Assembly (NCBI GenBank): GCA_965208125.1
Contig: OZ242320.1
Span: forward strand, 992,001 to 1,056,000
Reading direction: 5' to 3'
Source: Candidatus Latescibacterota bacterium
GTDB taxonomy: Bacteria > Latescibacterota > UBA2968
Length of the DNA stretch: 64,000 nt
The position numbers were made by a program, and so were the translations under genes. A model generated the notes under the pieces. The model saw nothing but the letters and a program-made list of their open reading frames with translations. It searched no databases and was not told the origin of the DNA. This document shows positions 1-14,500 of this stretch, one piece after another (the stretch's first letter is position 1; the number at the start of each line of letters is the position of its first letter).

Positions 1-1379
1 TTGACATGATGAAAAACTTCTTCGCTCTGGGCCTGTCCTACTGGATTTTTGACCGCCCGATTGAGCCGACCATTCGCATGCTCGAAAAGAAATTTCAGGG
101 CAAAGACGAAATCATCGACGGCAATGTGAGCACCCTGAAAGCCGGCTACAACTTTGGTGAAACAGTCGAAGAATTTCAGGTTCAGTACCAGGTTAAAAAA
201 GCCGTCGTCGCACCGGGCACTTATCGCGCTGTCACGGGTACACAAGCCACGGCAATAGGCATGGTTACTGCGGCTCACAAAGCGGGCAAAACCCTCTTTT
301 ACGGCAGCTATCCCATCACGCCGGCCAGCGCGGTACTCGAAGAATTGGCCGCATTGAAAAATTTTGACGTGCGAACCTTTCAAGCAGAAGATGAAATTTC
401 CGCATTGGGCTCAGTCATTGGCGCTGCTTTCGGCGGCGCGTTTGCCGCCACGGGCACCAGTGGCCCCGGCATCGCACTGAAAAGCGAAGCCATGAACCTC
501 GCTCTGATGATGGAATTGCCCCTCGTTATCTGCGATTTTCAGCGCGGCGGTCCCAGCACCGGCATGCCCACCAAAACAGAACAATCGGATCTGCTCCAAT
601 GCATGTTTGGTCGCAATGGCGACAGTCCCATCCCCATTGTCTCACCGGCCACGCCCTCAGACTGCTTTGACATGGTCATCGAAGCGTTTCGCATCGCCGT
701 TGAAACCATGAGTCCGGTCATTTTCCTCTCCGATGGATACCTCAACACCAGCGCTGAGCCGTGGAAAATTCCCGATCCGGATGATATTCCGACCATACAG
801 ACCGAGCACAGGACCGATCCCGAAGACTTCTTGCCCTATCTGCGCGATCCAAAAACTCTATCTCGTCCCTGGGTATTGCCGGGCACACCGGGCCTTGAAC
901 ACAGACTGGGTGGACTGGGCAAAGAAGACGGTACAGGCAATGTATCCTACGACCCGGATGACAACCAGCACATGGCGAACATACGCGCCGAACGCCTGGC
1001 GCGCATCGCCGACCGCATTCCACTCCAGCACGTCATGGGTCCCAAATCGGGCGATCTGCTCGTCCTGGGCTGGGGATGTACTTATGGTGCGATCCGCTCG
1101 GGAGTGCGCCGAATGCGACAGCAGGGCTATTCGGTAGCCGCGGCACATCTGCGCTACCTCAACCCATTCCCCAAAAATCTGGGCGCGATACTATCGAGTT
1201 ACAAAACTATACTCGTGCCCGAACTCAACATGGGACAGCTGTCTTTGCTGCTCCAGGCCAAATATCCCACACAGGTCATCGTCCCCTTCAATAAAGTTCA
1301 GGGATTGCCCTTCAAAATTTCAGAAATCTCCGACAAAATTGCCGAAATACTGGGCGTTCCAAAGAGCGCATCGTTATAG
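1..1379 (+). CDS. korA: 2-oxoacid:ferredoxin oxidoreductase alpha subunit (5'-truncated by window edge)
   Basis: YPITPAS, QAEDEI, TSGPG and QRGGPSTGMPT motifs; followed by the beta subunit. Confidence 0.92.
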   Translation, partial: DMMKNFFALGLSYWIFDRPIEPTIRMLEKKFQGKDEIIDGNVSTLKAGYNFGETVEEFQVQYQVKKAVVAPGTYRAVTGTQATAIGMVTAAHKAGKTLFYGSYPITPASAVLEELAALKNFDVRTFQAEDEISALGSVIGAAFGGAFAATGTSGPGIALKSEAMNLALMMELPLVICDFQRGGPSTGMPTKTEQSDLLQCMFGRNGDSPIPIVSPATPSDCFDMVIEAFRIAVETMSPVIFLSDGYLNTSAEPWKIPDPDDIPTIQTEHRTDPEDFLPYLRDPKTLSRPWVLPGTPGLEHRLGGLGKEDGTGNVSYDPDDNQHMANIRAERLARIADRIPLQHVMGPKSGDLLVLGWGCTYGAIRSGVRRMRQQGYSVAAAHLRYLNPFPKNLGAILSSYKTILVPELNMGQLSLLLQAKYPTQVIVPFNKVQGLPFKISEISDKIAEILGVPKSASL

Positions 1380-1391
1380 AGGAATCCAAAC

Positions 1392-2933
1392 ATGGCAGAC
1401 GCTATTGAAACACTGACGCGAAAAGACTTCGTATCCGACCAGGAAGTGCGCTGGTGCCCCGGTTGTGGTGATTACGCCATCCTTGCACAGATGCAGCGCG
1501 TGTTGCCCGAAATGGGCATTGCGCGGGAAGATATGGTCTTTATATCGGGCATCGGTTGCTCCAGCCGCTTCCCCTATTACATGAACACGTACGGTCTGCA
1601 CACCATTCACGGTCGTGCGGCAACCGTGGCGACTGGCCTCAAAGTGGCCAATCCCGACCTCCACGTATGGGTAATCACCGGCGATGGCGACAGCCTATCC
1701 ATAGGCGGCAATCACCTGTTGCATGTGCTGCGTCGCAACGTCGATCTCAACATCATACTCTTCAACAATGCGATCTACGGCCTCACCAAAGGACAATATT
1801 CGCCCACATCGCCACCGGGCACGCGCACCTATTCGTCGCCCATGGGCTCTGTGGAACAGGACTTCAATGCCATCTCCGTTGCCCTGGCAGCCGAAGCCAC
1901 CTTTGTCGCCCGCAGTGTTGACCGCAACACCAAGCACATGGCCGAGATCCTCAAACGCGCCACCGAACATCGCGGCACGTCCTTTGTCGAAATTTACCAG
2001 AACTGCAACATCTACAACGACGGTGCCTGGTTTTTTGCCACCGAAGCAGATGTCAAAGACGACCAGACCGTCATTCTGGAACACGGCCAACCCATCATTT
2101 TTGGCAAAGACCGCGACAAAGGCATCCGCGTCAATGGACTCGCGCCCGAAGTCGTAACTCTGGGTAATGGCGTATCGGAAAGCGACTTGCTCACACACGA
2201 CGAAACCCTGGACAATCCAGCCCATGCGTATTTGCTCAGCCGCCTCACACATCCGGAATATCCCGTACCATTCGGCGTATTTCGCTGTGTCGAACGTCCA
2301 ATTTACGAAGAGCAAATCATCGCACAGGGCCGCCAGGCGGTTGAAGAACGCGGCGCAGGCGATCTCAATGCACTGTATCACGCGACAGACACCTGGATTG
2401 TTCCCGAAGGTCCCGACGCCGAAACCGTGCAAGAAGTCCACGAAGAATTGCCCACATCGAATATCATTCCCGATATCGAACAAGAAGACCCCATGGCACC
2501 GCGCACCGCGCTTCAGCAACTGCTCTACGACCCCATCTCATCCCTCGACCTGCCAGCACCCGAATGCGTATCCGCCGATACCTCGGTAGCCGATGCCGTC
2601 GAGACCATGCGCAGCAAAAATCTGGGTTGTTTGCTGGTCGTTGACAAACAGGGCTTGTTGCGCGGCATATTCGCACAGGGCGATCTCTTTGAAAAAGTTG
2701 CCGGGCGCGATATAGACCTGACAAAAATAACGGTCGATAGCCTGATGACCAAAGACCCCACTGCATTGAAAACATCTGATCCCATCGGTCACCTCCTGCA
2801 CCTGATGTCTCTGCACGGCTTCCGTCACATACCTATTGTAGATCCCGATGGGCGTCCCGTGGGCCTGGCATCCTTTAAAGTCATGCTCAAGTTCACCGGC
2901 GGCCTCTTCTCAGACGACATATCGCCCAACTAA
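1392..2933 (+). CDS. korB: 2-oxoacid:ferredoxin oxidoreductase beta subunit with C-terminal tandem CBS domains
   Basis: WCPGCGD, SGIGCS and GDGD..NN TPP motifs; last ~130 aa form a CBS pair (DTSVADAVETMRSKNLGCLLVVD; HGFRHIPIVD). Confidence 0.9.
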   Translation: MADAIETLTRKDFVSDQEVRWCPGCGDYAILAQMQRVLPEMGIAREDMVFISGIGCSSRFPYYMNTYGLHTIHGRAATVATGLKVANPDLHVWVITGDGDSLSIGGNHLLHVLRRNVDLNIILFNNAIYGLTKGQYSPTSPPGTRTYSSPMGSVEQDFNAISVALAAEATFVARSVDRNTKHMAEILKRATEHRGTSFVEIYQNCNIYNDGAWFFATEADVKDDQTVILEHGQPIIFGKDRDKGIRVNGLAPEVVTLGNGVSESDLLTHDETLDNPAHAYLLSRLTHPEYPVPFGVFRCVERPIYEEQIIAQGRQAVEERGAGDLNALYHATDTWIVPEGPDAETVQEVHEELPTSNIIPDIEQEDPMAPRTALQQLLYDPISSLDLPAPECVSADTSVADAVETMRSKNLGCLLVVDKQGLLRGIFAQGDLFEKVAGRDIDLTKITVDSLMTKDPTALKTSDPIGHLLHLMSLHGFRHIPIVDPDGRPVGLASFKVMLKFTGGLFSDDISPN

Positions 2934-4948: not shown

Positions 4949-5815
4949 ATGACCCAAACCATTTCCTTAAGCGACCTGGACTTCCAGTCCAAAGACATCG
5001 ACCTTCAACGCGCTGCCGAGACATTCAAAACGCATGGCGCGATAGTCGTGCGGGGACTGCTCCGCGAATACATCGACGCGCTTCACCGCGACATCGAAGC
5101 CACGGCAAGGCAATCTCTCGCTCTCCTCGATCAAGCCACCGCAATCCCCGAAGGATGGCGCACGCCCAACAACACCCTCTTTATACCCGCGCCGGAAAAT
5201 TACGAACGCGACCGACAAATCATGGTCCTGGGCATCAACTACCACACCAGCGCCACCTTCTTTCGCTCGGCATTTCACCCGCCCACCCTCGACATAGTAG
5301 AAGCCATCCTCGGCCTCAACATCGAACTCTACGGCAACGGGCAATGCCTCTACAAAGAACCCGTCGGAGGCCATCCCAAACACCTGCACCAGGACTCGGC
5401 GTATTTTGAACACCGATACGAAGGACCCGTTGGCATCCTCACCTACGTCGTACCCACCGACCTCAACAACGGCGCCCTCCACGTCGTCCCCGGCTCTCAC
5501 AAACTCGGGCAACTCGACCACATAGACACCTTCTCGCACCTGGGACTCGCAGACCGCGAATGGCCCTGGGAGCGCGCCCTCCCAATACCCGGTCAACCCG
5601 GCGACGCCATCTTCTTCCACGTCAAAACCGTTCACGGCTCCAAACAAAACCACTCAGACAAACCCCGCCCCGTCTTCATACACCGCTACCGCAGAGCCGA
5701 TGACTACGTCGTCATACGCGGCACCACCACAAAAAACCGCGCAGAATCGTCAAAGCGTCCTGTAGAAGAAAAAAAAGAAAATGGATTCATGGTACGCGGT
5801 TTTCGTCCATATTAA
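4949..5815 (+). CDS. Phytanoyl-CoA dioxygenase (PhyH) family Fe(II)/2-oxoglutarate dioxygenase
   Basis: HQD facial-triad motif, NGALHVVPGSH, GDAIFFH...HGS. Confidence 0.9.
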   Translation: MTQTISLSDLDFQSKDIDLQRAAETFKTHGAIVVRGLLREYIDALHRDIEATARQSLALLDQATAIPEGWRTPNNTLFIPAPENYERDRQIMVLGINYHTSATFFRSAFHPPTLDIVEAILGLNIELYGNGQCLYKEPVGGHPKHLHQDSAYFEHRYEGPVGILTYVVPTDLNNGALHVVPGSHKLGQLDHIDTFSHLGLADREWPWERALPIPGQPGDAIFFHVKTVHGSKQNHSDKPRPVFIHRYRRADDYVVIRGTTTKNRAESSKRPVEEKKENGFMVRGFRPY

Positions 5816-5844
5816 AAAAGCGTGGGACATAATCCCACGCTTTT
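5816..5844. terminator. Bidirectional Rho-independent terminator
   Basis: AAAAGCGTGGGA-CATAA-TCCCACGCTTTT between convergent genes. Confidence 0.8.
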
Positions 5845-5866
5845 AATTTTCACCATCTGAACTTCC

Positions 5867-6070
5867 CTAAACCTGCGCCTCCACCATCACCTCAATAGCT
5901 GTCAGATGCGCTGCAACGCGCACATCCATCGGCTGTGCTGTCGGGCTTTCTGACGTCACCAGATGACTCGTATGCCCTCGCTGATACAAAGCAATGGGAA
6001 TACCCTCCCCGTACTTCCGCCTCGACACCTCCATATTGGGATGAATCACCCCATTGACCGCAACATCACC
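5867..6070 (-). pseudogene. Duplicated 3' end of the M14 peptidase gene (direct repeat 5877-6070 vs 9781-9974)
   Basis: 194-bp repeat with about 15 mismatches by manual alignment; encodes IHPNMEVSRRKYGEGIPIALYQRGH. Confidence 0.92.
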
Positions 6071-6172
6071 AACTATCAGATAAGCGGGGATAGGGGCGCA
6101 GCGGCTCTGCTGAGATTACCGCCTTCTACCCTGTATGGCAAAATGAGAAAACTGGGCATCAAAATTCCTTAA
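6062..6172 (+). pseudogene. C-terminal Fis-type HTH remnant of a sigma54 enhancer-binding protein (FhlA/HyfR-like)
   Basis: TNYQISGDRGAAALLRLPPSTLYGKMRKLGI; no AAA+ domain upstream. Confidence 0.8.
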
Positions 6173-6340
6173 GTTGTGTATCATATATTCTTAATATCGG
6201 CAATCGCCATATATGGTTAAATATCACCATATAAAGTTACCAAGAATATAAAATTTCAGACTGATTTTTATATATCCTTTTTTAACTACTTAAATATAAA
6301 TAATACTTTATGAGTAAAATCATCTTGTGACAAATTCATA

Positions 6341-6358
6341 TTGGCACGGATATTGCAT
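6341..6358 (+). promoter_or_regulatory. Sigma54 (-24/-12) promoter
   Basis: TTGGCACGGATATTGCA = TGGCACG-N4-TTGC with GG-N10-GC spacing; AT-rich upstream region 6172-6340. Confidence 0.85.
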
Positions 6359-6617
6359 GATTAGATCACATTTGCGAAGAAGAATATGTGCCCCAAAATT
6401 TGAACCGTTTTGAGGCTAATTTCCGCTGAGAATCAGCCGTGATATTTCTCAGCAAAAACAGCAGGAGGCCCTGTCGGATTGGTAGTCAGCCTGTGGCCTT
6501 CTGCCGCAACATACAGAGCGAGAATGGTCCAACAAACCATAACCTACTCTTTTTTAAAGAGGTAATTCGTCGTAATCGGCTTTCAAACACCGCGCAACAA
6601 CTTCTCCAGAAACATAT

Positions 6618-8585
6618 ATGCTGAGATTTGCTGAAGAAATACTGCTGCTGCTTCACAACGAAGATCGAGGCGATTTCGCGTCCGGTCTTGCGCCGCATGC
6701 ATTGAACATCGTCCTCGCTGGTGCCGTATTGATGGATTTGGCCCTTGAAAACCGCATCGATACCGATCTCGATCATCTCTTTTTGGCTGATGCCACGCCT
6801 CTTGAAGACGACCTGCTTGATCCCACCCTTGCCGACATCGCGCGCGATACGGACACACGAGACGCCAACTATTGGCTCGCACAAACGACCAAACGGGGCG
6901 ACGAAATCCGCGATAAAGCACTTGCGCGACTGATCAACCGGGGCATCCTGGAAGCCGAATCCGAAGGGATCTTCTTCCTTTCGCACCTGGTATCGCACTG
7001 CCGCCACTATCCAACCATTGATGGACAACCAGTAGAAGAAGTCCGGTTACGCATTATGCGCGTACTGTTCACCGATGAAATTCCGGACCCACGCGACATC
7101 GTCATTATCTGTCTGGCGGATGCCTGCGGCGTTTTCAAGAATATTTTATCCCAGTCAGAACTATCGGAGGTACAAGAACGGATCGAACTGATTCGAAAAA
7201 TGGACCTGATCGGCCAATCGGTTACCAGAGCGATTCGCAAGCATGAGCCTCCTACCCCTGTCCCTACTCCACGCAAGGAGATACCGCAGGCACCGGGGTT
7301 GCCGCTTATTGGCAACACCATCGGCATGAAGCGCGATTTGCGCTCGCTTCTCGTCAAACAATACCGAAACTTAGGGCCGATTTTTCGCATCAAGGCATTC
7401 AATCGCCGCTTCATCGCCCTCGTAGGTCCCGAGGCGAATACCTTCGTAAAGCGAGGGGGTAAGTACTTTCGCACGCTTGAAAACTGGGTGGATTACAACA
7501 AAGCTGGGGGCGTCGGACGCAACATAATCAGCATGGATGGCCCCGAACATATTCGCATGCGCAAAGAACTGGCGGATGTGTACACCCACCGCCTCATTGA
7601 AGGCCGCGTGGCAGACGTTGTCCGCGTTCTTCAACAAGATATCGCCGGATGGCCCCAGGACAAGCCGCTACCGGGCTTATACACCTGGCAGCGCATCGTC
7701 TTAAATCAGATCGGTGTGCTGGCCCTCAGCATGCCTGTACACGACTACTTAGACGACATTATGGTTTATTTTCACAGCAAGATGAAAACGTATATCATGC
7801 GGCAGCAACCCAGGCTGATGTTATATCGGCCACGCGTCCGGCGTGCCTTCAAGCGGATGGAAGAACTGACTCAGCGCATTCTGGCTGATCACGAACCAGA
7901 AAAACGCCGCAACAAGCCACCGGATACCATTGACCATTTGCTGGAACTGCACCGCAGGGATCCGCAATTTCTTCCCGAGACCGATTTAGAGGTAATAGGT
8001 CCTCTCACGGCCGGTCTCGATACCGTGGCAAATACCTGTGCCTTCATATTCTACGAACTGTTGAAGCGACCCGATCTGCGCGAGCAGGTAATTGCTGAAG
8101 CAGACGCCCTCTTTGACCAGGGTATGCCTGAGGTGAGCGACCTGCGTCAACTCGATGTCCTGCACCGCACGGCAATGGAAACCTTGCGCCTCTATCCCCT
8201 TGCACCGGTAATGTCATTGCGCACGGTAGCCAACTCATTTGAATTTGAGGGCTACAAGGTCTCTGCTGGCGAGACCCTTCTTATTGGATTCACAATACCG
8301 CACCTGATGTCAGAATATTTCCCCAATCCGGAGCGCTTCGATATCGACCGCTACACCGCAGAACGCGCTGAGCACCGCCAGCACGGGGTCTATGCCCCCT
8401 TCGGTTTAGGAGCGCATCGGTGTCTGGGTAGCAATCTCGCCGAGGCGTTCATTGCGCTCAACATGGCGGCCATCTTCCGCGAGGCCGATTTGGTTCTCGA
8501 TCCGCCCGATTGCGAATTAAAGACCAAACAGACCTATTCCCTTCTACCCTACTTCAAGTTCCGCCTGGTGCGTCGGCACCGATAG
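6618..8585 (+). CDS. GPP34 (GOLPH3/Vps74-like) domain fused to cytochrome P450
   Basis: First ~205 aa: LRFAEEILLL..LAGAVLMDLALENRI..RLINRGIL (GPP34). C-terminal P450: AGLDT I-helix, ETLR, PERF, FGLGAHRCLG heme ligand. Confidence 0.88.
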   Translation: MLRFAEEILLLLHNEDRGDFASGLAPHALNIVLAGAVLMDLALENRIDTDLDHLFLADATPLEDDLLDPTLADIARDTDTRDANYWLAQTTKRGDEIRDKALARLINRGILEAESEGIFFLSHLVSHCRHYPTIDGQPVEEVRLRIMRVLFTDEIPDPRDIVIICLADACGVFKNILSQSELSEVQERIELIRKMDLIGQSVTRAIRKHEPPTPVPTPRKEIPQAPGLPLIGNTIGMKRDLRSLLVKQYRNLGPIFRIKAFNRRFIALVGPEANTFVKRGGKYFRTLENWVDYNKAGGVGRNIISMDGPEHIRMRKELADVYTHRLIEGRVADVVRVLQQDIAGWPQDKPLPGLYTWQRIVLNQIGVLALSMPVHDYLDDIMVYFHSKMKTYIMRQQPRLMLYRPRVRRAFKRMEELTQRILADHEPEKRRNKPPDTIDHLLELHRRDPQFLPETDLEVIGPLTAGLDTVANTCAFIFYELLKRPDLREQVIAEADALFDQGMPEVSDLRQLDVLHRTAMETLRLYPLAPVMSLRTVANSFEFEGYKVSAGETLLIGFTIPHLMSEYFPNPERFDIDRYTAERAEHRQHGVYAPFGLGAHRCLGSNLAEAFIALNMAAIFREADLVLDPPDCELKTKQTYSLLPYFKFRLVRRHR

Positions 8586-8602
8586 CAAAATGGAGCGTCA
8601 AA

Positions 8603-9733
8603 ATACCTGCTAAGAAACCACAGTCCAGGAATGTAGATCACCCCAACACGCCCGCACCGCTGCGCGTTTGGGCGAGGCTCCTCTGGGGTCAGGACGGGGT
8701 GAGGGTCGCGCCCCAGCACCGGGGACGAGTGAGGCGAATTCTCCTTGGCTCGGCCCTGATGGTACCGCTACGCTTGATCGAAAAGATGCGCTACGGGCGC
8801 GCCGTGGCTCGGACTAAGATCGCGCATCCACCGATCTTTATCATCGGCCATGCCCGCTCGGGCACGACGCACTTGCACTATCTCCTGACGCGCGATCCGC
8901 AGTTCGCAATCGTCTCGATATTCCAAGCCGCCGTCCCGACATTCTTTCTGATCGGTCGCGGTTGGATCAAGCGTTTCATGGCCAAGCAGCTCGGGTCGAA
9001 ACGCCCGCAGGATGATGTCAAAATAACTATGGACATGCCGAACGAGGAAGAATTTGCGATTGCCAATTCCTCTGAGCTATCCTTTGTTCACTTCCTTACA
9101 TTCCCATCCAAGACGATGGAGTACCTTGAAAAATATGTCTTCATGAGGGGGCTAACCGATCAGCAACTGGCACGCTGGGATGCCGTCATCACGGACATCA
9201 TTAAAAAAGCCACATTTGCGGGCGGCGGAAAGCAGTTGGTACTCAAAAGCCCCACCAACACCGGCCGAATCCCCCACATCCTGCGCCTTTTCCCCAATGC
9301 GAAGTTCGTTCATATCGCAAGAAATCCATGCGATGTCTATTACTCGACAAACCATACATTCAGAAAGATGTTTGAGTTGTTCCTGCTGGAGGAGCATCCA
9401 GGCGATGTTGCGGATTTCGTCATCACCAAGTACAAGGCTCTAATGGAACAATACCTGAAAGACAGAGCTTTGATCCCGGAAGGCAATCTGGCGGAAGTGA
9501 AGTACGAGGACCTCGTAGCTGATCCGTTGGGCGAACTGGAACGCATCTACGCGGCCCTCGGATTGTCCGGTTGGGAAAGCGGAGGGAAGCAAGCGGTCGT
9601 CGAGTACCTGAGCACGCTTTCGGACTACCAAAAAAATACATTCGAGCCGGACCCTGACGCTATGGAGCGCATCTCACAAGCCTGGCGGTTTGCTTTCGAA
9701 GAATGGAATTATGAACTACCAGTAAAGCTATAG
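8603..9733 (+). CDS. PAPS-dependent sulfotransferase (Stf3-like); start uncertain (ATA 8603 behind GGAG, or ATG 8759)
   Basis: PIFIIGHARSGTTHL 5'-PSB loop; LKSP; AKFVHIARNP 3'-PB; VKYEDLVADP. Confidence 0.85.
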   Translation: MPAKKPQSRNVDHPNTPAPLRVWARLLWGQDGVRVAPQHRGRVRRILLGSALMVPLRLIEKMRYGRAVARTKIAHPPIFIIGHARSGTTHLHYLLTRDPQFAIVSIFQAAVPTFFLIGRGWIKRFMAKQLGSKRPQDDVKITMDMPNEEEFAIANSSELSFVHFLTFPSKTMEYLEKYVFMRGLTDQQLARWDAVITDIIKKATFAGGGKQLVLKSPTNTGRIPHILRLFPNAKFVHIARNPCDVYYSTNHTFRKMFELFLLEEHPGDVADFVITKYKALMEQYLKDRALIPEGNLAEVKYEDLVADPLGELERIYAALGLSGWESGGKQAVVEYLSTLSDYQKNTFEPDPDAMERISQAWRFAFEEWNYELPVKL

Positions 9734-9758
9734 ACCGACCTCAATCTATGTGCCAGTT

Positions 9759-10502
9759 TTAGATGAAATCCCTCGCATTAGCCTCCACCATCACCTCAAC
9801 CGCTGCCAAATGCGCTGCAACGCGCACATCCATCGGCTGTGCTGTCGGGCTTTCTGACGTCACCAGATGCCCTGTATGGCCTCGCTGATACAAAGCGATC
9901 GGTATGCCCTCCCCGTACTTCCGCCTCGACACCTCCATATTGGGATGAATCACCCCATTGACTGCAACCTCGCCCTCAATCTCAGCCTCTTTATTAATCG
10001 GACACACCTGTGCCACCCGCGTCACCATCTTCCGTCCCAGAGATTCTCTGTCCCCAAACATCTCGTACAAATAAAACCCCGCACTCTCCCAATCCTCGTG
10101 CAAATCGATCACACCTGCAAAAACTCGTCCTTCTACAAAACCCTTCAAAATCTCAATCTCGGGCACATCATCGCGCAAAAACGCCCAATTCACATCCACC
10201 TCCTGTGCATTGAGCCGCGCATTGTGAACATAGCTCCACGGGCACAAACACGGAATAACTTCAAAACGCACCCGATCAGCCCAGCGATCCCACTCCCTCT
10301 CTAAAAAAGCCAGCGCGGCCTCTATGCCAGCCGGTTCATCGCCGTGCGTCCCCCCATTGATATACACAACAGGCGCGTCTCCCTTGCCAGCAGACACGCG
10401 CAAAACCGGCAACCCTTCAACCACCCCCAACTCATACACATCAACACCAGACACTGCTTCCACACGCTTGACAACAGCATCGTAATCCCGTTGAACCATC
10501 AC
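9759..10502 (-). CDS. M14 family metallopeptidase / succinylglutamate desuccinylase-like
   Basis: GGTHGDEPAG and IDLHED zinc motifs; ESP catalytic Glu. Confidence 0.85.
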   Translation of the reverse strand: MMVQRDYDAVVKRVEAVSGVDVYELGVVEGLPVLRVSAGKGDAPVVYINGGTHGDEPAGIEAALAFLEREWDRWADRVRFEVIPCLCPWSYVHNARLNAQEVDVNWAFLRDDVPEIEILKGFVEGRVFAGVIDLHEDWESAGFYLYEMFGDRESLGRKMVTRVAQVCPINKEAEIEGEVAVNGVIHPNMEVSRRKYGEGIPIALYQRGHTGHLVTSESPTAQPMDVRVAAHLAAVEVMVEANARDFI

Positions 10503-11458
10503 ATATCCCGAAGCGCGTCAATCACCCGCACGTGAATCTCCCGGGCACTCACCACCACCCCGCGATTGTCTTCCATCTGAGCAGCAGACACAAAATCCAG
10601 CGGCCTGCCAAACATATCGCTCACCTGTCCACCGGCTTCCTCAACAATCAGAGCACCCGCAGCGTGATCCCAGATATTCTCGCGATAATCCGGATATTCT
10701 GGCGACGGCAGCCTCAAATACAACGCCGCATCGCCGCGTGCCACCGCGCCGTATTTCACCTGACTATCCATCCTGAGCGACGGCGAAACAATCCCAACCG
10801 CACGAGCCACCGCTTGCTGTGCATCGAAATCACAGTGTGACGACTCCACGCTCTCTGCAAACCGCCATGCAGGGTCATCAATGCGAACATCAACACCATC
10901 CCCACCTGCAAGAGACATCGCTCGTGTACCCTCTCCCCTAACAGCCACAAATAACACCCCACAATCACCGTCCACCTGATCCATATCCACCGGCAGAGCC
11001 GGACACGCCAGCGCAGCAACCTTCACCTCCCCGCAATCGACGAGCGCCAGCGCCACCGCGTATTGATCCCCGCGCAAAAAACCCTTTGTCCCATCGATGG
11101 GATCGAGCGTCCAGAAACGCTCTGCAACATCCCCATTACCCGCATCAATCCAGTCACAAACCGTATTCTCATCCGCCCGTGCATACGCCCGAACAAACTC
11201 ACACACAGTCTTCCGCATCGCCGTTTGCCCGGCATCCCGAAGCGCCGATGCATCTTCCTCCGCCACAATCGGATCCCCGGGAAAAACCGACTTTAACTGT
11301 CGGCACACAAGCGCCTGCGAGCCAAAATCCGCAACCGTCACCGGACTGCGATCCTCCTTCTCCATCGCCCCAACAAGTGATTTTCGCACATCCACACAAA
11401 GCCGCGCAGCCTCGCGCACAGCCTCAACAGCGACCTCCCGTTCCCGATCATATCCCAT
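10499..11458 (-). CDS. 3'(2'),5'-bisphosphate nucleotidase (HAL2/CysQ-like PAP phosphatase)
   Basis: SPVTVADF, AEE, WTLDPIDGTKGF, MDSQVKY, ENIWDHAAG. Confidence 0.9.
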   Translation of the reverse strand: MGYDREREVAVEAVREAARLCVDVRKSLVGAMEKEDRSPVTVADFGSQALVCRQLKSVFPGDPIVAEEDASALRDAGQTAMRKTVCEFVRAYARADENTVCDWIDAGNGDVAERFWTLDPIDGTKGFLRGDQYAVALALVDCGEVKVAALACPALPVDMDQVDGDCGVLFVAVRGEGTRAMSLAGGDGVDVRIDDPAWRFAESVESSHCDFDAQQAVARAVGIVSPSLRMDSQVKYGAVARGDAALYLRLPSPEYPDYRENIWDHAAGALIVEEAGGQVSDMFGRPLDFVSAAQMEDNRGVVVSAREIHVRVIDALRDM

Positions 11459-11466
11459 AAACACCC

Positions 11467-12366
11467 CTATTTCTTTTGCGCACCAAAATGATCCATCTCG
11501 CCGCGATCAATCCAACCCGGCAATCTAATCTTCTCCGACATCTTCCACGCCGTCAAATAAAGCGAAACCGTAAAACCCGCAGCCCGCTTTGCATGCTTCT
11601 CGGCAAAAGCGCGCACCGCAGGCTCATTCTTCCAATCCACATCATTTGGAATGAGATACTGCTCCATTGCCAGCGCGGCCTCAACCTCACCAAAACTCTC
11701 GTGCATCTGCGCCACAATACCCGCCATCAAACTATCCACAGGCGCGGCAGTCAAACCCTCGGCAATCGCCTCAGGTTCCAGATCCAAATTTTGAAGCAAC
11801 CCATCAATCTTCTCGTGAATGCGCGTCATCGACGACTTGCCATCCACAACGCGACCATTCCAGTGAATCGTCAAATTCAGAGGTTGACAAATCTCCTGAG
11901 CAAAATGCGCCACATACCCGGCGTATATCAGACACTTATTTTGAACAAACGGACTCTCGGGCCACTTGCGAAACTCTGCAAAAGCCAGAGCGAGTTGCTC
12001 GGTATATTCCGCTGTTACGTAAGGCAGTAAACCCACCTGCTCAGGCTTCTTCCCCGACTCTGCACAGCGCCTGCCAAACTCGTACCGCGACGCGGGCAAA
12101 TTCCCCACGTCAAACAGCTCCATATTAAAATAATGAACCGGATGCCCGGCCCGCTCCAGATGAAGCGTACCGCGATTTTTCGCAACATCTGGATCAACAG
12201 CCGCATGAGCCACCATACCCGCACCAGCCCTGAGAAAAGCAGGCGCATCTGCTGGAAGCGCCTGAACAGCCGCCCGCGTCAAAATGCCATGCCCTCGCGG
12301 CCACCAGCCCCAGGCGGACGATCCGAATACAAATAGTGCCAATAATACCATACCCAATCGACGCAT
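11467..12366 (-). CDS. Secreted S1/P1 nuclease / Zn-phospholipase C-like protein, paralog B (altered metal ligands)
   Basis: Signal peptide then WWPRGH; DPD; HFAQEICQPLN; HEKID. Confidence 0.7.
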   Translation of the reverse strand: MRRLGMVLLALFVFGSSAWGWWPRGHGILTRAAVQALPADAPAFLRAGAGMVAHAAVDPDVAKNRGTLHLERAGHPVHYFNMELFDVGNLPASRYEFGRRCAESGKKPEQVGLLPYVTAEYTEQLALAFAEFRKWPESPFVQNKCLIYAGYVAHFAQEICQPLNLTIHWNGRVVDGKSSMTRIHEKIDGLLQNLDLEPEAIAEGLTAAPVDSLMAGIVAQMHESFGEVEAALAMEQYLIPNDVDWKNEPAVRAFAEKHAKRAAGFTVSLYLTAWKMSEKIRLPGWIDRGEMDHFGAQKK

Positions 12367-12385
12367 CGATAATCTCCTTTCTTTT

Positions 12386-13279
12386 CTACTTCCCGTCCCA
12401 AACCTCTCGCTTCACATAATCTGCAATCTCCAAACGCTCGGACAATCGCCAGGCAGTCAAATAAAGCCGAGCAGTAAACCGCGTTGCAGCGCGGGCGCGA
12501 TCTTTTGCAAAAGCGATCACCTCGGCATTTGGGACCCAATTCTCCTCATCATATCTGGGAATATTCGGCCCCATTTCATAAACCCGATCAACCAGTGCAA
12601 ACCCCTCCTCAAACTCCCGCATAATCTCAGACATCACATCATCAAAAGGCGTCACATCCTGATCGCGCGACAAATCCTCGGGTTTCATCTTCAAAAACTG
12701 CACCAACCCATCCACCTTCTGGTGAATACCCCTCTGCAACTTTTCTCCCCCCTCCACCACGCGCCCATCGTAGTGAATCGTCAAATGCAAAGGCTGGCAC
12801 ATATCCTCGGCATAATGCGCGAGAAAACCCGCATAAATCAGGCACTTACTCTGAATATGCGGATTATCGGGCCACTTGCGAAACTCTGCAAAAGCCACCG
12901 CCAGCCGCTCAGTCCACTCATTCACCGCATAGGGAACAAACCCCATCTTCTCGGGCGACACCCCATGCTCATAACACAACTTGACAAACGCGTATCGACT
13001 CGCGGGCAGCGTCTCCACATCGAGCATCTCGCGATCCAAAAAATGCTCGGGATACTCTGCCCCTCGCACCTGCGGCGTACCCCGATTCTTGCCCATATCG
13101 GGATCAATACTCAAATGCGCCACCGTCTTTGCCCCCTGCCTGAAAAACGCGGGAACCTCATCGGGCAAAGCCGCCACAGCGGACAAAGTCAGAATATGAT
13201 GCCCCTCCAGAAACCAGCCTCGAGCAGGAGAACACAACCCTGCTAAAAGCAAAACAGAAACAGCAAATCGTTTGATCAT
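12386..13279 (-). CDS. Secreted S1/P1 nuclease / Zn-phospholipase C-like protein, paralog A
   Basis: Signal peptide then WFLEGH; DPD; EHFLD; HYAEDMCQPLH; HQKVD (full trinuclear Zn ligand set). Confidence 0.75.
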   Translation of the reverse strand: MIKRFAVSVLLLAGLCSPARGWFLEGHHILTLSAVAALPDEVPAFFRQGAKTVAHLSIDPDMGKNRGTPQVRGAEYPEHFLDREMLDVETLPASRYAFVKLCYEHGVSPEKMGFVPYAVNEWTERLAVAFAEFRKWPDNPHIQSKCLIYAGFLAHYAEDMCQPLHLTIHYDGRVVEGGEKLQRGIHQKVDGLVQFLKMKPEDLSRDQDVTPFDDVMSEIMREFEEGFALVDRVYEMGPNIPRYDEENWVPNAEVIAFAKDRARAATRFTARLYLTAWRLSERLEIADYVKREVWDGK

Positions 13280-13319
13280 CACACCTCCTGGGGTAGTGTC
13301 AGCAGTCACACATAAAGAC

Positions 13320-13348
13320 AGCGGAGAAACTCAGAAAGTTTCTCCGCT
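13320..13348 (-). terminator. Hairpin terminator downstream of selC
   Basis: AGCGGAGAAACT-CAGAA-AGTTTCTCCGCT. Confidence 0.65.
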
Positions 13349-13356
13349 ATCAAAAA

Positions 13357-13454
13357 TGGCGGGAATGTGTGGGAATCGAACCCACCAAGCGTGGGGTTAG
13401 CACGCAACAACGGGTTTGAAGCCCGCGGGGGACACCAGTTCCCCATCCACTCCC
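13357..13454 (-). tRNA. selC: tRNA-Sec (UCA anticodon), 98 nt, CCA encoded
   Basis: GGGAGTGG..D-arm with TGGT loop..GCGGG-CTTCAAA-CCCGT, long variable arm, GTGGG-TTCGATT-CCCAC, ACATTCCC-GCCA; 2 nt after the selD stop. Confidence 0.95.
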
Positions 13455-13456
13455 AA

Positions 13457-14500
13457 TCACGCGCGTACCTCAATTTCACCGGGATGTTCTGCAACCACCT
13501 CGCCAATATCTCGAGCCATCACACCGCGCTCAATGAGTGCCCCAAGAAAAGCATCAGCCACATCGGGCGCAAGTGCAATCAGCAGGCCACCAGAAGTCTG
13601 CGGATCAAAAAACAAACGCCTCAAAGACTCGTCAACATCTTCGGCAAACCGCACCGCATGCCCTCGCGCCGCCCGATTGCGCCGCAAACCACCGCCCTCA
13701 CGCCCCTCTGCAATCTGCAAAGCCAGATCGAAACGCGGCACATCAAGAGCACGTATGCAAAACCCAACGCCACTCGCCTCAGCCATCTCCAACCCATGCC
13801 CCAGCAACCCAAACCCGGTAATATCCGTACATCCACCCGCATTATATGCAACCATCTCCTCGGCTGCGACGCGATTCAACTGCACCATAGAATCCACCGC
13901 AACCTGCAAAGCATCTTCATCGATCTCGTCATTTTGATACGCATCCGACATCAAACCCGTACCCAGCGGCTTGGTCAGAATGAGACGATCACCCACCCGC
14001 GCACCCGCATTGGTCTTCACATCGTCTGGATGCACAACCCCCGTCACAGACAACCCGAACTTGGGCTCCACATCCTCCACAGAATGTCCACCCACCAGAA
14101 CTGCGCCGGACTCCGCCACCTTCTCCTGTCCCCCTCTTAAAACCTCGGCAATCACCTCTGGATCGACATCATCACTCGGAAACCCGCAAATATTCAGCGC
14201 AGTAATCGGGCGCCCTCCCATCGCATACACATCGCTCAGCGAATTGGCTGCCGCAATCTGCCCATACGCATGCGGATCATCGACAATAGGCGTAAAAAAA
14301 TCCACCGTCTGAATAAGCGCCACATCCTCAGAAATCCGAAACACACCGGCATCATCAGCCGTATTCATCCCCACCATCAAATCGGGATGCGCCACAGGCG
14401 GCAACTTTTTCAAAATCACATCCAGCACCGCTGGATCGAGTTTCGATGCTCAACCACCGCAACTGACGAGCTGAGTCAATCTTCTACCGCGATACTTCAT
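13457..14500 (-). CDS. selD: Selenophosphate synthetase, selenoprotein (U17, TGA at 14450-14452), 347 aa
   Basis: ATG 14500 gives MKYRGRRLTQLVSCGG-U-ASKLDP, in frame with the 323-aa ORF (DDAGV, QTVDFFTP, GGHS, TDITGFGL, DPQTSGGLL). Confidence 0.95.
14420..14436 (-). promoter_or_regulatory. Putative bacterial SECIS of selD
   Basis: ATCCAG-CGGTG-CTGGAT hairpin, loop about 20 nt 3' of the UGA. Confidence 0.7.

Follow-up and report, generated by a model that had tools for sequence, protein, structure and literature searches.

A GPP34–cytochrome P450 fusion gene and its sulfotransferase neighbor in Latescibacterota: a candidate module for the oxidation and sulfation of lipophilic molecules

Results

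A GPP34–P450 fusion gene is followed by a sulfotransferase gene

The stretch analyzed here, called the window, comprises 64,000 nucleotides from a Candidatus Latescibacterota bacterium (assembly GCA_965208125.1, contig OZ242320.1, positions 992,001 to 1,056,000 of the forward strand). We describe a gene in it that encodes, in one chain, a GPP34 domain and a cytochrome P450, together with the sulfotransferase gene that follows, and we suggest that the two products may act in succession on a lipophilic small molecule. A preliminary description, made from the letters of the stretch alone, had proposed a membrane-targeted hydroxylate-then-sulfate module driven by a sigma54 promoter and assisted by a nearby 3'-phosphoadenosine 5'-phosphate (PAP) phosphatase. 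The central features, in window positions, are:

6618..8585, + strand: GPP34–P450 fusion gene, a single open reading frame of 655 aa (domains by Pfam)
7245..7271, + strand: Pro-rich linker EPPTPVPTP (residues 210–218), joining GPP34 to the P450
8592..8595, + strand: ribosome-binding site GGAG, 7 nt upstream of the start position of the sulfotransferase and kept in 9/9 loci compared
8603..9733, + strand: sulfotransferase gene, 376 aa from an ATA codon; an alternative TTG at 8510 gives 407 aa

In the fusion, GPP34 (PF05719) covers residues 5–207 and profile positions 2–199 of 201 (Pfam, E 1.1e-35; 124 bits against a cut-off of 29.1), and p450 (PF00067) covers residues 224–638 (Pfam, E 1.7e-52). 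The P450 motifs are complete, i.e., FGLGAHRCLG (595), AGLDTV (465), ETLR (521) and PERF (571), and the residues of the Cys-ligand loop, the I-helix, the ExxR motif and the PERF motif are invariant among 38 aligned fusion homologs. The P450 domain has a predicted isoelectric point (pI) of 9.3, and an AlphaFold2 model of the whole fusion has a predicted local distance difference test score (pLDDT) of 83.6. Proteins of public Latescibacterota metagenome-assembled genomes (MAGs) are 86–93% identical to the window fusion, and both domains are present in 118 of the 120 homolog clusters listed in a protein collection search, at identities down to 54%. The ratio of nonsynonymous to synonymous substitution rates (dN/dS) is 0.20–0.29 against eight relatives, and the fusion is under purifying selection. 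The Pfam matches, the motifs and the position of the linker thus bear out the preliminary description of a GPP34 domain, a Pro-rich linker and an intact P450 in a single chain.

The frame 8510–9733 matches Sulfotransfer_3 (Pfam, E 1.8e-37), and the protein carries the motifs GHARSGTT and RNPCD of the loop for 3'-phosphoadenosine 5'-phosphosulfate (PAPS). Homologs are 360–380 aa long and place the start at the site 17 nt past the P450 stop (376-aa proteins open with MPTKKPQ). Together with the family match, these starts confirm the spacing first described, although the codon at this site is ATA. For comparison, we used ten related loci from a genome collection (L001–L010), all from Latescibacterota MAGs. 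The codon at 8603–8605 is ATA in the window and in L001, L002, L004, L006, L008 and L009, and ATG in L003 and L005. The sole canonical in-frame start is TTG 8510, which entails a 76-nt overlap with the P450 gene. Homologs at 55% identity keep the N-terminal sequence from residue 43 of the long frame onward, which excludes a later start. Initiation is then either at ATA, perhaps aided by coupling to termination at the P450 stop, or at TTG 8510. The sulfotransferase is under purifying selection, with a dN/dS of 0.18–0.36 against six relatives. Its closest solved relatives are 2zq5 (E 1.2e-7) and 2z6v, which are probably the mycobacterial Stf-type enzymes Stf1 and Stf9, although their database name is "putative uncharacterized protein". 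An adenosine 5'-phosphosulfate (APS) kinase is encoded in the genome and, therefore, PAPS can be made; a HAL2-type PAP phosphatase is encoded as well, which fits a supply of the cofactor.

The pairing is conserved across part of the phylum

Downstream sequence is available for nine loci of close relatives; the sulfotransferase gene follows the fusion gene in seven of them, and in L007 an acyltransferase gene (Acyl_transf_3) replaces it. We extended the comparison to 168 Latescibacterota genomes with thresholds of E <= 1e-60 for the fusion and E <= 1e-40 for the sulfotransferase. Of these genomes, 23 contain 33 sulfotransferase matches in total, and for 29 of the matches a fusion gene on the same strand is no more than 4 kb away. 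Of the other four, two are partial matches of ~90 residues (G078, G079), one is 30% identical, and one is in G038, which has no fusion match. Fusion matches occur in 64 of the 168 genomes, with the long form in 50 of them by a count of match rows, and carriers are concentrated in three genera (18/20, 12/15 and 26/31 genomes).

The pairing reaches far into the fusion family. After three N-terminal pieces at contig ends had been dropped from the 33 fusion rows that are at least 41% identical to the window protein, 23 of the 30 evaluable fusions, with identities of 41–93%, have a same-strand sulfotransferase neighbor. Usually, a single sulfotransferase gene lies downstream at a distance of 20–190 nt (~1.4 and 1.7 kb in two cases), while two or three tandem copies stand directly upstream of the fusion gene in G085, G091, G138 and G145. 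The pairing outlasts rearrangement of the genes, changes in copy number and sequence divergence to 41% identity, which makes a shared function hard to avoid. These findings support a functional link between the P450 and the sulfotransferase, and the co-occurrence of the two genes, on which the initial proposal depended, is borne out. In addition, six pairs of fusion and sulfotransferase clusters have identical longest-contig sizes (3,440 to 23,432 bases), an indirect hint at further co-located pairs.

In the wider family, other second-step enzymes take the place of the sulfotransferase

A metagenome scan yielded 80 loci, in which the full-length fusions were reduced to 19 non-redundant ones (L022, L024, L025 and L082 were dropped as near-duplicates). 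Only L011 among the 19 has this sulfotransferase; here, the gene is upstream, its product is 55% identical, and a cupin gene and a major facilitator superfamily (MFS) pump gene follow. An EcKL-family kinase is encoded in six of the loci, each time beside an MFS transporter. The remaining loci include one with GH3 and a resistance-nodulation-division (RND) transporter, one with Acyl_transf_3, one with OEP-HlyD-RND and one with an MFS transporter alone. Overall, a neighbor of conjugating type is present in 9/19 loci (EcKL 6, sulfotransferase 1, Acyl_transf_3 1, GH3 1), an MFS or RND transporter in 11/19, and either a transporter or a conjugating enzyme in 12/19. Several metagenome loci also carry Rieske/KshA_C, an amine-oxidase-type flavoprotein and sulfatases, and L007 additionally carries a GT1-type glycosyltransferase.

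The type of partner tracks the clades of the fusion in a FastTree phylogeny of 64 fusion proteins. We initially read the single sulfotransferase case among 19 loci as a sign that the pairing is rare; this reading was dropped after the phylum scan, and partner choice depends on clade. The sequence clusters of this sulfotransferase, the EcKL kinases and the MFS transporters are not represented at loci with the short form or with a P450 only. A weak, sulfotransferase-like tblastn match in L015 (E 5e-5) was set aside as unconfirmed; an overlapping open reading frame on the opposite strand had no Pfam match. As a general logic, these neighborhoods suggest a family that oxidizes, conjugates and exports, with sulfation as the likely Latescibacterota version.

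Separately, the short, GPP34-only form adjoins a small protein of one cluster in 11 metagenome loci (L047–L050, L063, L070, L072, L084–L086, L089); a 261-aa member of this cluster has a STAS domain.

The GPP34 domain has the GOLPH3/Vps74 fold and appears to lack most of the phosphoinositide pocket

A single-sequence phmmer search of the N-terminal domain against PDB sequences found neither GOLPH3 nor Vps74, and a profile was needed: a profile of 24 GPP34 domains matches Vps74 (1.3e-13) and GOLPH3 (2.1e-11) over nearly the whole length. The AlphaFold2 model of the domain has a pLDDT of 87.2 and a predicted template modeling score (pTM) of 0.87. In a Foldseek search of the PDB, the top eight matches of this model are all GOLPH3/Vps74 (E 1e-7 to 1e-4, with a TM-score on the query of 0.73–0.76), and the next match has an E of 0.3. 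The N-terminal domain is, therefore, a true homolog of GOLPH3/Vps74, and the identification of GPP34 holds by profile and by predicted structure alike.

The preliminary description had linked the domain to membrane targeting through binding of phosphatidylinositol 4-phosphate (PtdIns4P). The PtdIns4P pocket is described as W81, R90, R171 and R174 in GOLPH3 and W88, R97, K178 and R181 in Vps74 (PMC2806290). In an HMM alignment, the Vps74 residues align with A25, A34, D95 and R98 of the window domain; thus, one of four is kept, at an alignment identity of ~16% that makes a local shift possible. A34 sits inside the near-invariant motif LAGAVLMDLA. Moreover, the domain is acidic, with a whole-domain pI of 4.3–5.3 in 24/24 sequences. 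Because one of four pocket residues is kept and the domain is acidic, it is probably not a PtdIns4P binder, and membrane targeting by this route finds no support. In comparison with GOLPH3 and Vps74, the window domain is thus homologous over nearly its whole length and has the same fold; however, in the HMM alignment it retains only the equivalent of R174 and not those of W81, R90 and R171, its whole-domain pI is acidic and does not suggest a basic face, and it is fused to an enzyme.

Microsomal (class II) P450s have an N-terminal anchor followed by a proline-rich hinge. The window protein resembles them in its Pro-rich linker, after which PQAPGLPLIGN opens the P450 domain, and in that the closest folds of its P450 belong to the eukaryote-like P450 group; it differs from them in having no transmembrane helix. 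Based on the linker, the PQAPGLPLIGN start and the eukaryote-like P450 folds, the analogy suggests that the GPP34 domain may occupy the place of the membrane anchor.

Clues to the substrate

Among solved P450s, the nearest in sequence is the CYP51 of a CYP51–ferredoxin fusion (6mcw, E 1.4e-30; the best stretch spans residues 191–404 of the domain). By fold (Foldseek), the closest are CYP184A1, P450 BM3 and CYP51, the latter at 22–23% identity. Members of one P450 family share ~40% identity as a rule, and CYP51 has an I-helix signature of its own. With 22–23% identity and the ordinary I-helix AGLDTV, the window P450 was rejected as a CYP51. No NCBIfam equivalog reaches its cut-off for this P450.

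The genome encodes a second fusion, 36% identical to that of the window, at 5717668–5726480 (5668–14480 of locus L105). The order in its operon is HlyD–RND–fusion–methyltransferase; the methyltransferase matches Sterol_MT_C with 56.5 bits against a cut-off of 21.7, and a gene for a Rieske/KshA_C oxygenase is convergent with the operon. The window locus itself has no Sterol_MT_C, Rieske/KshA_C or cyclase gene. The genome, a single contig that is 96% complete, has no match to SQHop_cyclase_C or squalene epoxidase. SQHop_cyclase_C is absent in 20/20 genomes of the genus and has matches in only 3 of the 168 genomes of the phylum. Because sterol-type tailoring genes are present and no triterpene cyclase was found, we favor as the substrate an imported polycyclic lipid, which would most simply be a host sterol. 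Of the sulfated lipid, quinone or sterol product suggested at the outset, the sterol-like option thereby gains indirect support from the CYP51 matches and the Sterol_MT_C and KshA_C neighbors.

The sigma54 site appears to be a strain-specific acquisition

The region in front of the fusion gene contains the following features:

6061..6172, + strand: remnant of a sigma54 enhancer-binding protein (EBP) gene, the last ~35 codons with a Fis-type helix-turn-helix
6200..6239, + strand: boxes resembling upstream activating sequences (UAS), i.e., a CCATATATGG palindrome and a second half-related box, ~105–140 nt upstream of the -24 element
6342..6357, + strand: sigma54 -24/-12 element TGGCACGGATATTGCA, the sole perfect match in the window, 260 nt upstream of the fusion gene
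6461..6555, + strand: two-hairpin element ending in T6 (6550–6555), terminator-like, in the presumed 5' leader

The consensus sigma54 site noted earlier is present with the correct spacing, and RpoN is encoded in the genome, which contains 40 perfect sigma54 sites against 5.6 expected from base composition. The translated remnant, ending in NYQISGDRGAAALLRLPPSTLYGKMRKLGIKIP before its stop codon, matches the C-terminus of a 1071-aa EBP in L004 with the domains Reg_prop, Y_Y_Y, Sigma54_activat and HTH_8. The segment 6061–6417 is 88% identical to positions 3588139–3587783 of the genome, i.e., to the 3' end of an intact paralog and its promoter, and the sigma54 site lies 170 nt past the stop of the remnant, as compared with ~180–220 nt for five EBP genes that the genome keeps intact. 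The operon probably obtained its sigma54 promoter as a copy from another activator locus of this genome. The boxes at 6200..6239 are UAS-like and may act as upstream activating sequences. By eye, similar NNNNATATATNNNN boxes, partly palindromic and ATATAT-centered, lie upstream of most of the eight EBP-linked sigma54 sites.

Seven full-length sigma54 activator paralogs of ~1065 aa, of the type with Reg_prop/Y_Y_Y, Sigma54_activat and HTH_8, and a shorter one (residues 357–1064) are encoded in the genome, at these genome positions:

228435–231617; 248347–251532; 1548168–1551341; 2211686–2214910: activator genes
3584130–3587318; 3588037–3591240; 4812330–4815506: activator genes
70323–72443: the shorter activator gene

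Three of the eight activator-linked sigma54 sites precede genes for giant, eukaryote-like leucine-rich repeat (LRR) proteins of 1478–1639 aa. The activators look like paralogous, one-to-one regulator–target pairs for eukaryote-like proteins.

The segment 6165–6600 matches none of the ten related loci. In L001, L002 and L010, the fusion gene directly follows a PhyH gene and there is no sigma54 site; L004 has a perfect sigma54 site of its own together with a divergent full-length activator gene, and L007 has its own near-consensus site. Because the segment is unmatched and the orthologous loci have no site or their own sites, sigma54 control appears to be a strain-specific acquisition that recurs independently in some relatives. 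The idea of a conserved sigma54 promoter thus fails: the segment is strain-specific, three relatives have no site, and ~35 codons are left of the adjacent activator. Sigma54 control of the operon may require one of the paralogous activators, supplied in trans.

The two-hairpin element (~100 nt, intergenic) has seven copies in the genome, the others near 3591455, 3583996, 1556863, 1251090, 1252081 and 1260397, with a consensus fold of -28.7 kcal/mol; it has no Rfam match. It could terminate or modulate transcription. By eye, two sequence variants of the element seem to keep the inner stem (UGG/CCA and CGG/CCG). Between 5700 and 10000, Rfam gave two matches, both at 5754–5859 and far below the gathering scores (E 0.5, 1.0), and scans for sigma70 promoters and terminators gave no signal above shuffled background.

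Contigs from RNA libraries cover both genes at 90–95% likeness in four runs from two studies labeled sponge metagenome, and those of runs X1–X3 carry L003-type upstream sequence. The runs hold 6–11% of the sampled words, and uncovered parts (5700–6027, 8488–8651 and others) are uninformative. The contigs are a weak hint that the fusion and sulfotransferase genes of relatives are transcribed.

Flanking genes and the limits of the cassette

The genes and fragments around the pair are:

3..2933, + strand: alpha and beta subunits of a 2-oxoacid:ferredoxin oxidoreductase, 3.7 kb upstream of the fusion gene
5877..6077, - strand: duplicated 3' fragment of the M14/AstE-like gene, a copy of 9781–9981
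9759..10502, - strand: M14/AstE-AspA-like zinc hydrolase gene, convergent with the sulfotransferase gene; Pfam match below cut-off
10499..11464, - strand: HAL2-type 3'(2'),5'-bisphosphate nucleotidase (PAP phosphatase) gene, TIGR01330 bisphos_HAL2
11467..12366 and 12386..13309, - strand: two tandem paralogous genes, ~45% identical to each other

The PAP phosphatase gene is present where it had been placed, about 0.8 kb away (765 nt past the sulfotransferase stop, on the opposite strand), and its product exceeds the cut-off of the NCBIfam equivalog TIGR01330 (300.1 bits against 267.05). However, it is kept in L007, which lacks the sulfotransferase, and is absent beside the pairs of L004, L006 and L009. 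On this synteny, we rejected the phosphatase as a part of the module. It belongs instead to a conserved backbone made up of the M14-like gene, the PAP phosphatase gene and the two paralogous genes, which have no Pfam or NCBIfam match and are kept in related loci.

The M14-like gene has an NCBIfam match to N-acetylornithine deacetylase at 44 bits, below the cut-off, and follows the fusion gene, with or without the sulfotransferase gene, in L001–L003, L005 and L007–L009, in two different wider contexts. In L005, where the sulfotransferase gene is deleted, the first few codons past its ATG run directly into the end of the M14-like gene. A direct repeat of 201 nt, 91% identical (5877–6077 and 9781–9981), brackets the whole cassette; its upstream copy is a dead M14-like fragment, of which a shorter remnant occupies the same place in L003. 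The cassette occurs in three or more different contexts, and one genome carries it twice (L003 and L006).

The 2-oxoacid:ferredoxin oxidoreductase is a possible source of reduced ferredoxin for the P450. The C-terminal stretch of its beta subunit matches CBS-type models.

Discussion

Here, we lean toward a model in which the pair carries out hydroxylation and then sulfation, in the cytoplasm, of an imported lipophilic and possibly sterol-like substrate. In this model, the P450 half of the fusion would hydroxylate a lipophilic small molecule, and the sulfotransferase, its translation probably coupled to the upstream fusion gene, would esterify the new hydroxyl with sulfate from PAPS. The substrate would most likely be a polycyclic, sterol-like lipid from the animal host or its community. 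Across the family, the sulfotransferase would be swapped for a kinase, an acyltransferase, a glycosyltransferase or an amido synthetase, often with efflux pumps added. The hydroxylate-then-sulfate module originally proposed thus survives in its enzymatic core, for which the conserved pairing (29/33) and the supply of PAPS speak, and not in its membrane targeting, its conserved promoter or its link to the phosphatase.

Several observations weigh against this model. The P450 can serve without the sulfotransferase, as 7 of the 30 evaluable fusions with at least 41% identity lack it and the sulfotransferase gene of L005 is cleanly deleted (7968–8030) while its P450 is intact. Also, none of the 40 fusion rows at 34–37% identity in the 168 genomes has this sulfotransferase nearby, and the counts suggest more independent support than there is, because the genomes belong to one phylum and share ancestry. 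Neither a redox partner nor a transporter is encoded at the window locus. The clues to a sterol come mostly from another clade, that of the 36%-identity paralog, and from a weak family resemblance; more generally, we infer the order of the reactions, the class of the substrate and the cytoplasmic site from family names and neighboring genes. At the level of expression, the sulfotransferase gene has a noncanonical ATA start, a hairpin with a T-run separates the sigma54 site from the start codon, and the RNA-library contigs come from relatives and may derive from DNA.

The alternatives differ in what they make of the neighbors. The interchangeable second-step enzymes and the MFS and RND pumps beside the fusion would also fit a defense against xenobiotics, in which lipophilic toxins of any scaffold from the host or its neighbors are oxidized, conjugated and pumped out. 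EcKL proteins have been proposed as phase II detoxification enzymes of insects (bioRxiv 10.1101/2020.02.17.951962), and BM3 and CYP184A1, both broad fatty-acid hydroxylases, are among the nearest P450 folds. However, the whole protein is 54–93% identical across the listed clusters, the few named sources of which belong to several phyla and, therefore, one conserved substrate class is indicated rather than a diversifying detoxification family; the neighbors Sterol_MT_C, KshA_C and EcKL also have a steroid flavor. We regard xenobiotic defense as possible, if improbable. If, instead, the substrate were endogenous, e.g., a menaquinone that is sulfated as by Cyp128/Stf3, whose sulfomenaquinone operon is a precedent (PMC6469627), or a hopanoid, no import would be involved. 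That SQHop_cyclase_C is found in only 3/168 genomes, yet 23 fusion–sulfotransferase pairs exist in the phylum, argues against this idea, which we judge quite unlikely.

A third, published proposal concerns the GPP34 domain itself, which would make the protein a secreted effector that arrests the maturation of phagosomes through binding to host PtdIns4P, while the P450 would be accessory (PMC11706023). The same paper reports the family only from sponge symbionts. The domain is a true GOLPH3/Vps74 homolog, and giant LRR proteins of the genome are under activator-linked sigma54 promoters of the same class, both of which agree with an effector. By contrast, one of four pocket residues is kept in a domain that is acidic in 24/24 sequences, and the N-terminus forms helix 1 of the fold and shows, by inspection, no Sec- or Tat-type signal. 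Moreover, a P450 requires haem, a reductase chain and NAD(P)H, and the neighboring proteins either draw on PAPS or ATP of the cytoplasm or act as inner-membrane pumps. A secreted effector, therefore, appears very unlikely to us. Finally, the adjacency might have no functional meaning if the genes merely travel together as a mobile cassette; the three or more contexts, the two copies in one genome, the flanking 201-nt duplication and mosaic repeats would be expected of one. Nevertheless, the pairing persists to 41% identity with changed order and copy number, and both genes are under purifying selection, which leaves chance co-travel extremely improbable.

Returning to oxidation and conjugation of an imported lipid, a more far-reaching version would have the symbionts rather than the sponge make the sulfated sponge sterols: host sterol would be imported and hydroxylated, one to three tandem sulfotransferases would add the sulfates, the pocketless GPP34 domain would serve in lipid handling or docking, and the operon would, in this strain, belong to the LRR-linked sigma54 regulon. 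Sponges contain mono- to tri-sulfated sterols, and these would match one to three tandem sulfotransferases. We consider this version speculative and unlikely. If the substrate is a host sterol, the pair would bear on the origin of sponge sterol conjugates and on how symbionts handle host lipids. A search of the literature returned no functional follow-up on GPP34 in sponges, nothing on a P450–sulfotransferase–sterol module in sponges and nothing relevant that links Latescibacteria with a sulfotransferase.

Three published systems allow a comparison. Sterol clusters of sponge symbionts contain SMT, sdmA/sdmB and often an oxidosqualene cyclase (Nat Commun 2023;14:1859, PMC10070321). The Sterol_MT_C methyltransferase and the Rieske/KshA_C oxygenase by the second fusion resemble this gene set; the cyclase that is often present there was, however, not found in this genome, and the term "P450" does not occur in the main text of that paper. 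The Cyp128/Stf3 operon of Mycobacterium tuberculosis combines a P450 and a sulfotransferase and is associated with sulfomenaquinone (PMC6469627). The window shares with it the co-directional, adjacent genes for a P450 and a PAPS-type sulfotransferase, conserved across relatives, and a proposed hydroxylation and sulfation, there of a membrane lipid. It differs in its GPP34 domain, which is lacking in the Cyp128/Stf3 operon, and its sulfotransferase is only distantly related to the solved 2zq5 and 2z6v.

The closest counterpart is GPP34_L, the published GPP34 plus P450 architecture of sponge symbionts from many phyla (Microbiome 2025;13:4, PMC11706023). According to its main text, 656 of 663 long forms contain the P450, and GPP34_L is present in 92.6% of 27 sponge-associated Latescibacterota genomes. 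The window fusion has the same one-chain architecture; it is an ordinary member of the published family, and the fusion is not new. The earlier remark that no GPP34–P450 fusion had been characterized, therefore, still applies to its biochemistry and no longer to the architecture. The main text treats GPP34–P450 as a hallmark of sponge symbionts and proposes for GPP34, as the sole functional idea published there, manipulation of the host by a secreted effector that binds PtdIns4P. Flanking genes are described in it for the short form only, and the word "sulfotransferase" does not occur in it, while the supplements may list neighbors. By contrast, the sulfotransferase pairing, the swappable partners, the pumps and the loss of the pocket argue for a metabolic job in lipid oxidation and conjugation, a reading that offers a concrete two-enzyme assay. 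To the published family, our analysis adds the conserved sulfotransferase pairing in Latescibacterota and partner enzymes that depend on the clade of the fusion.

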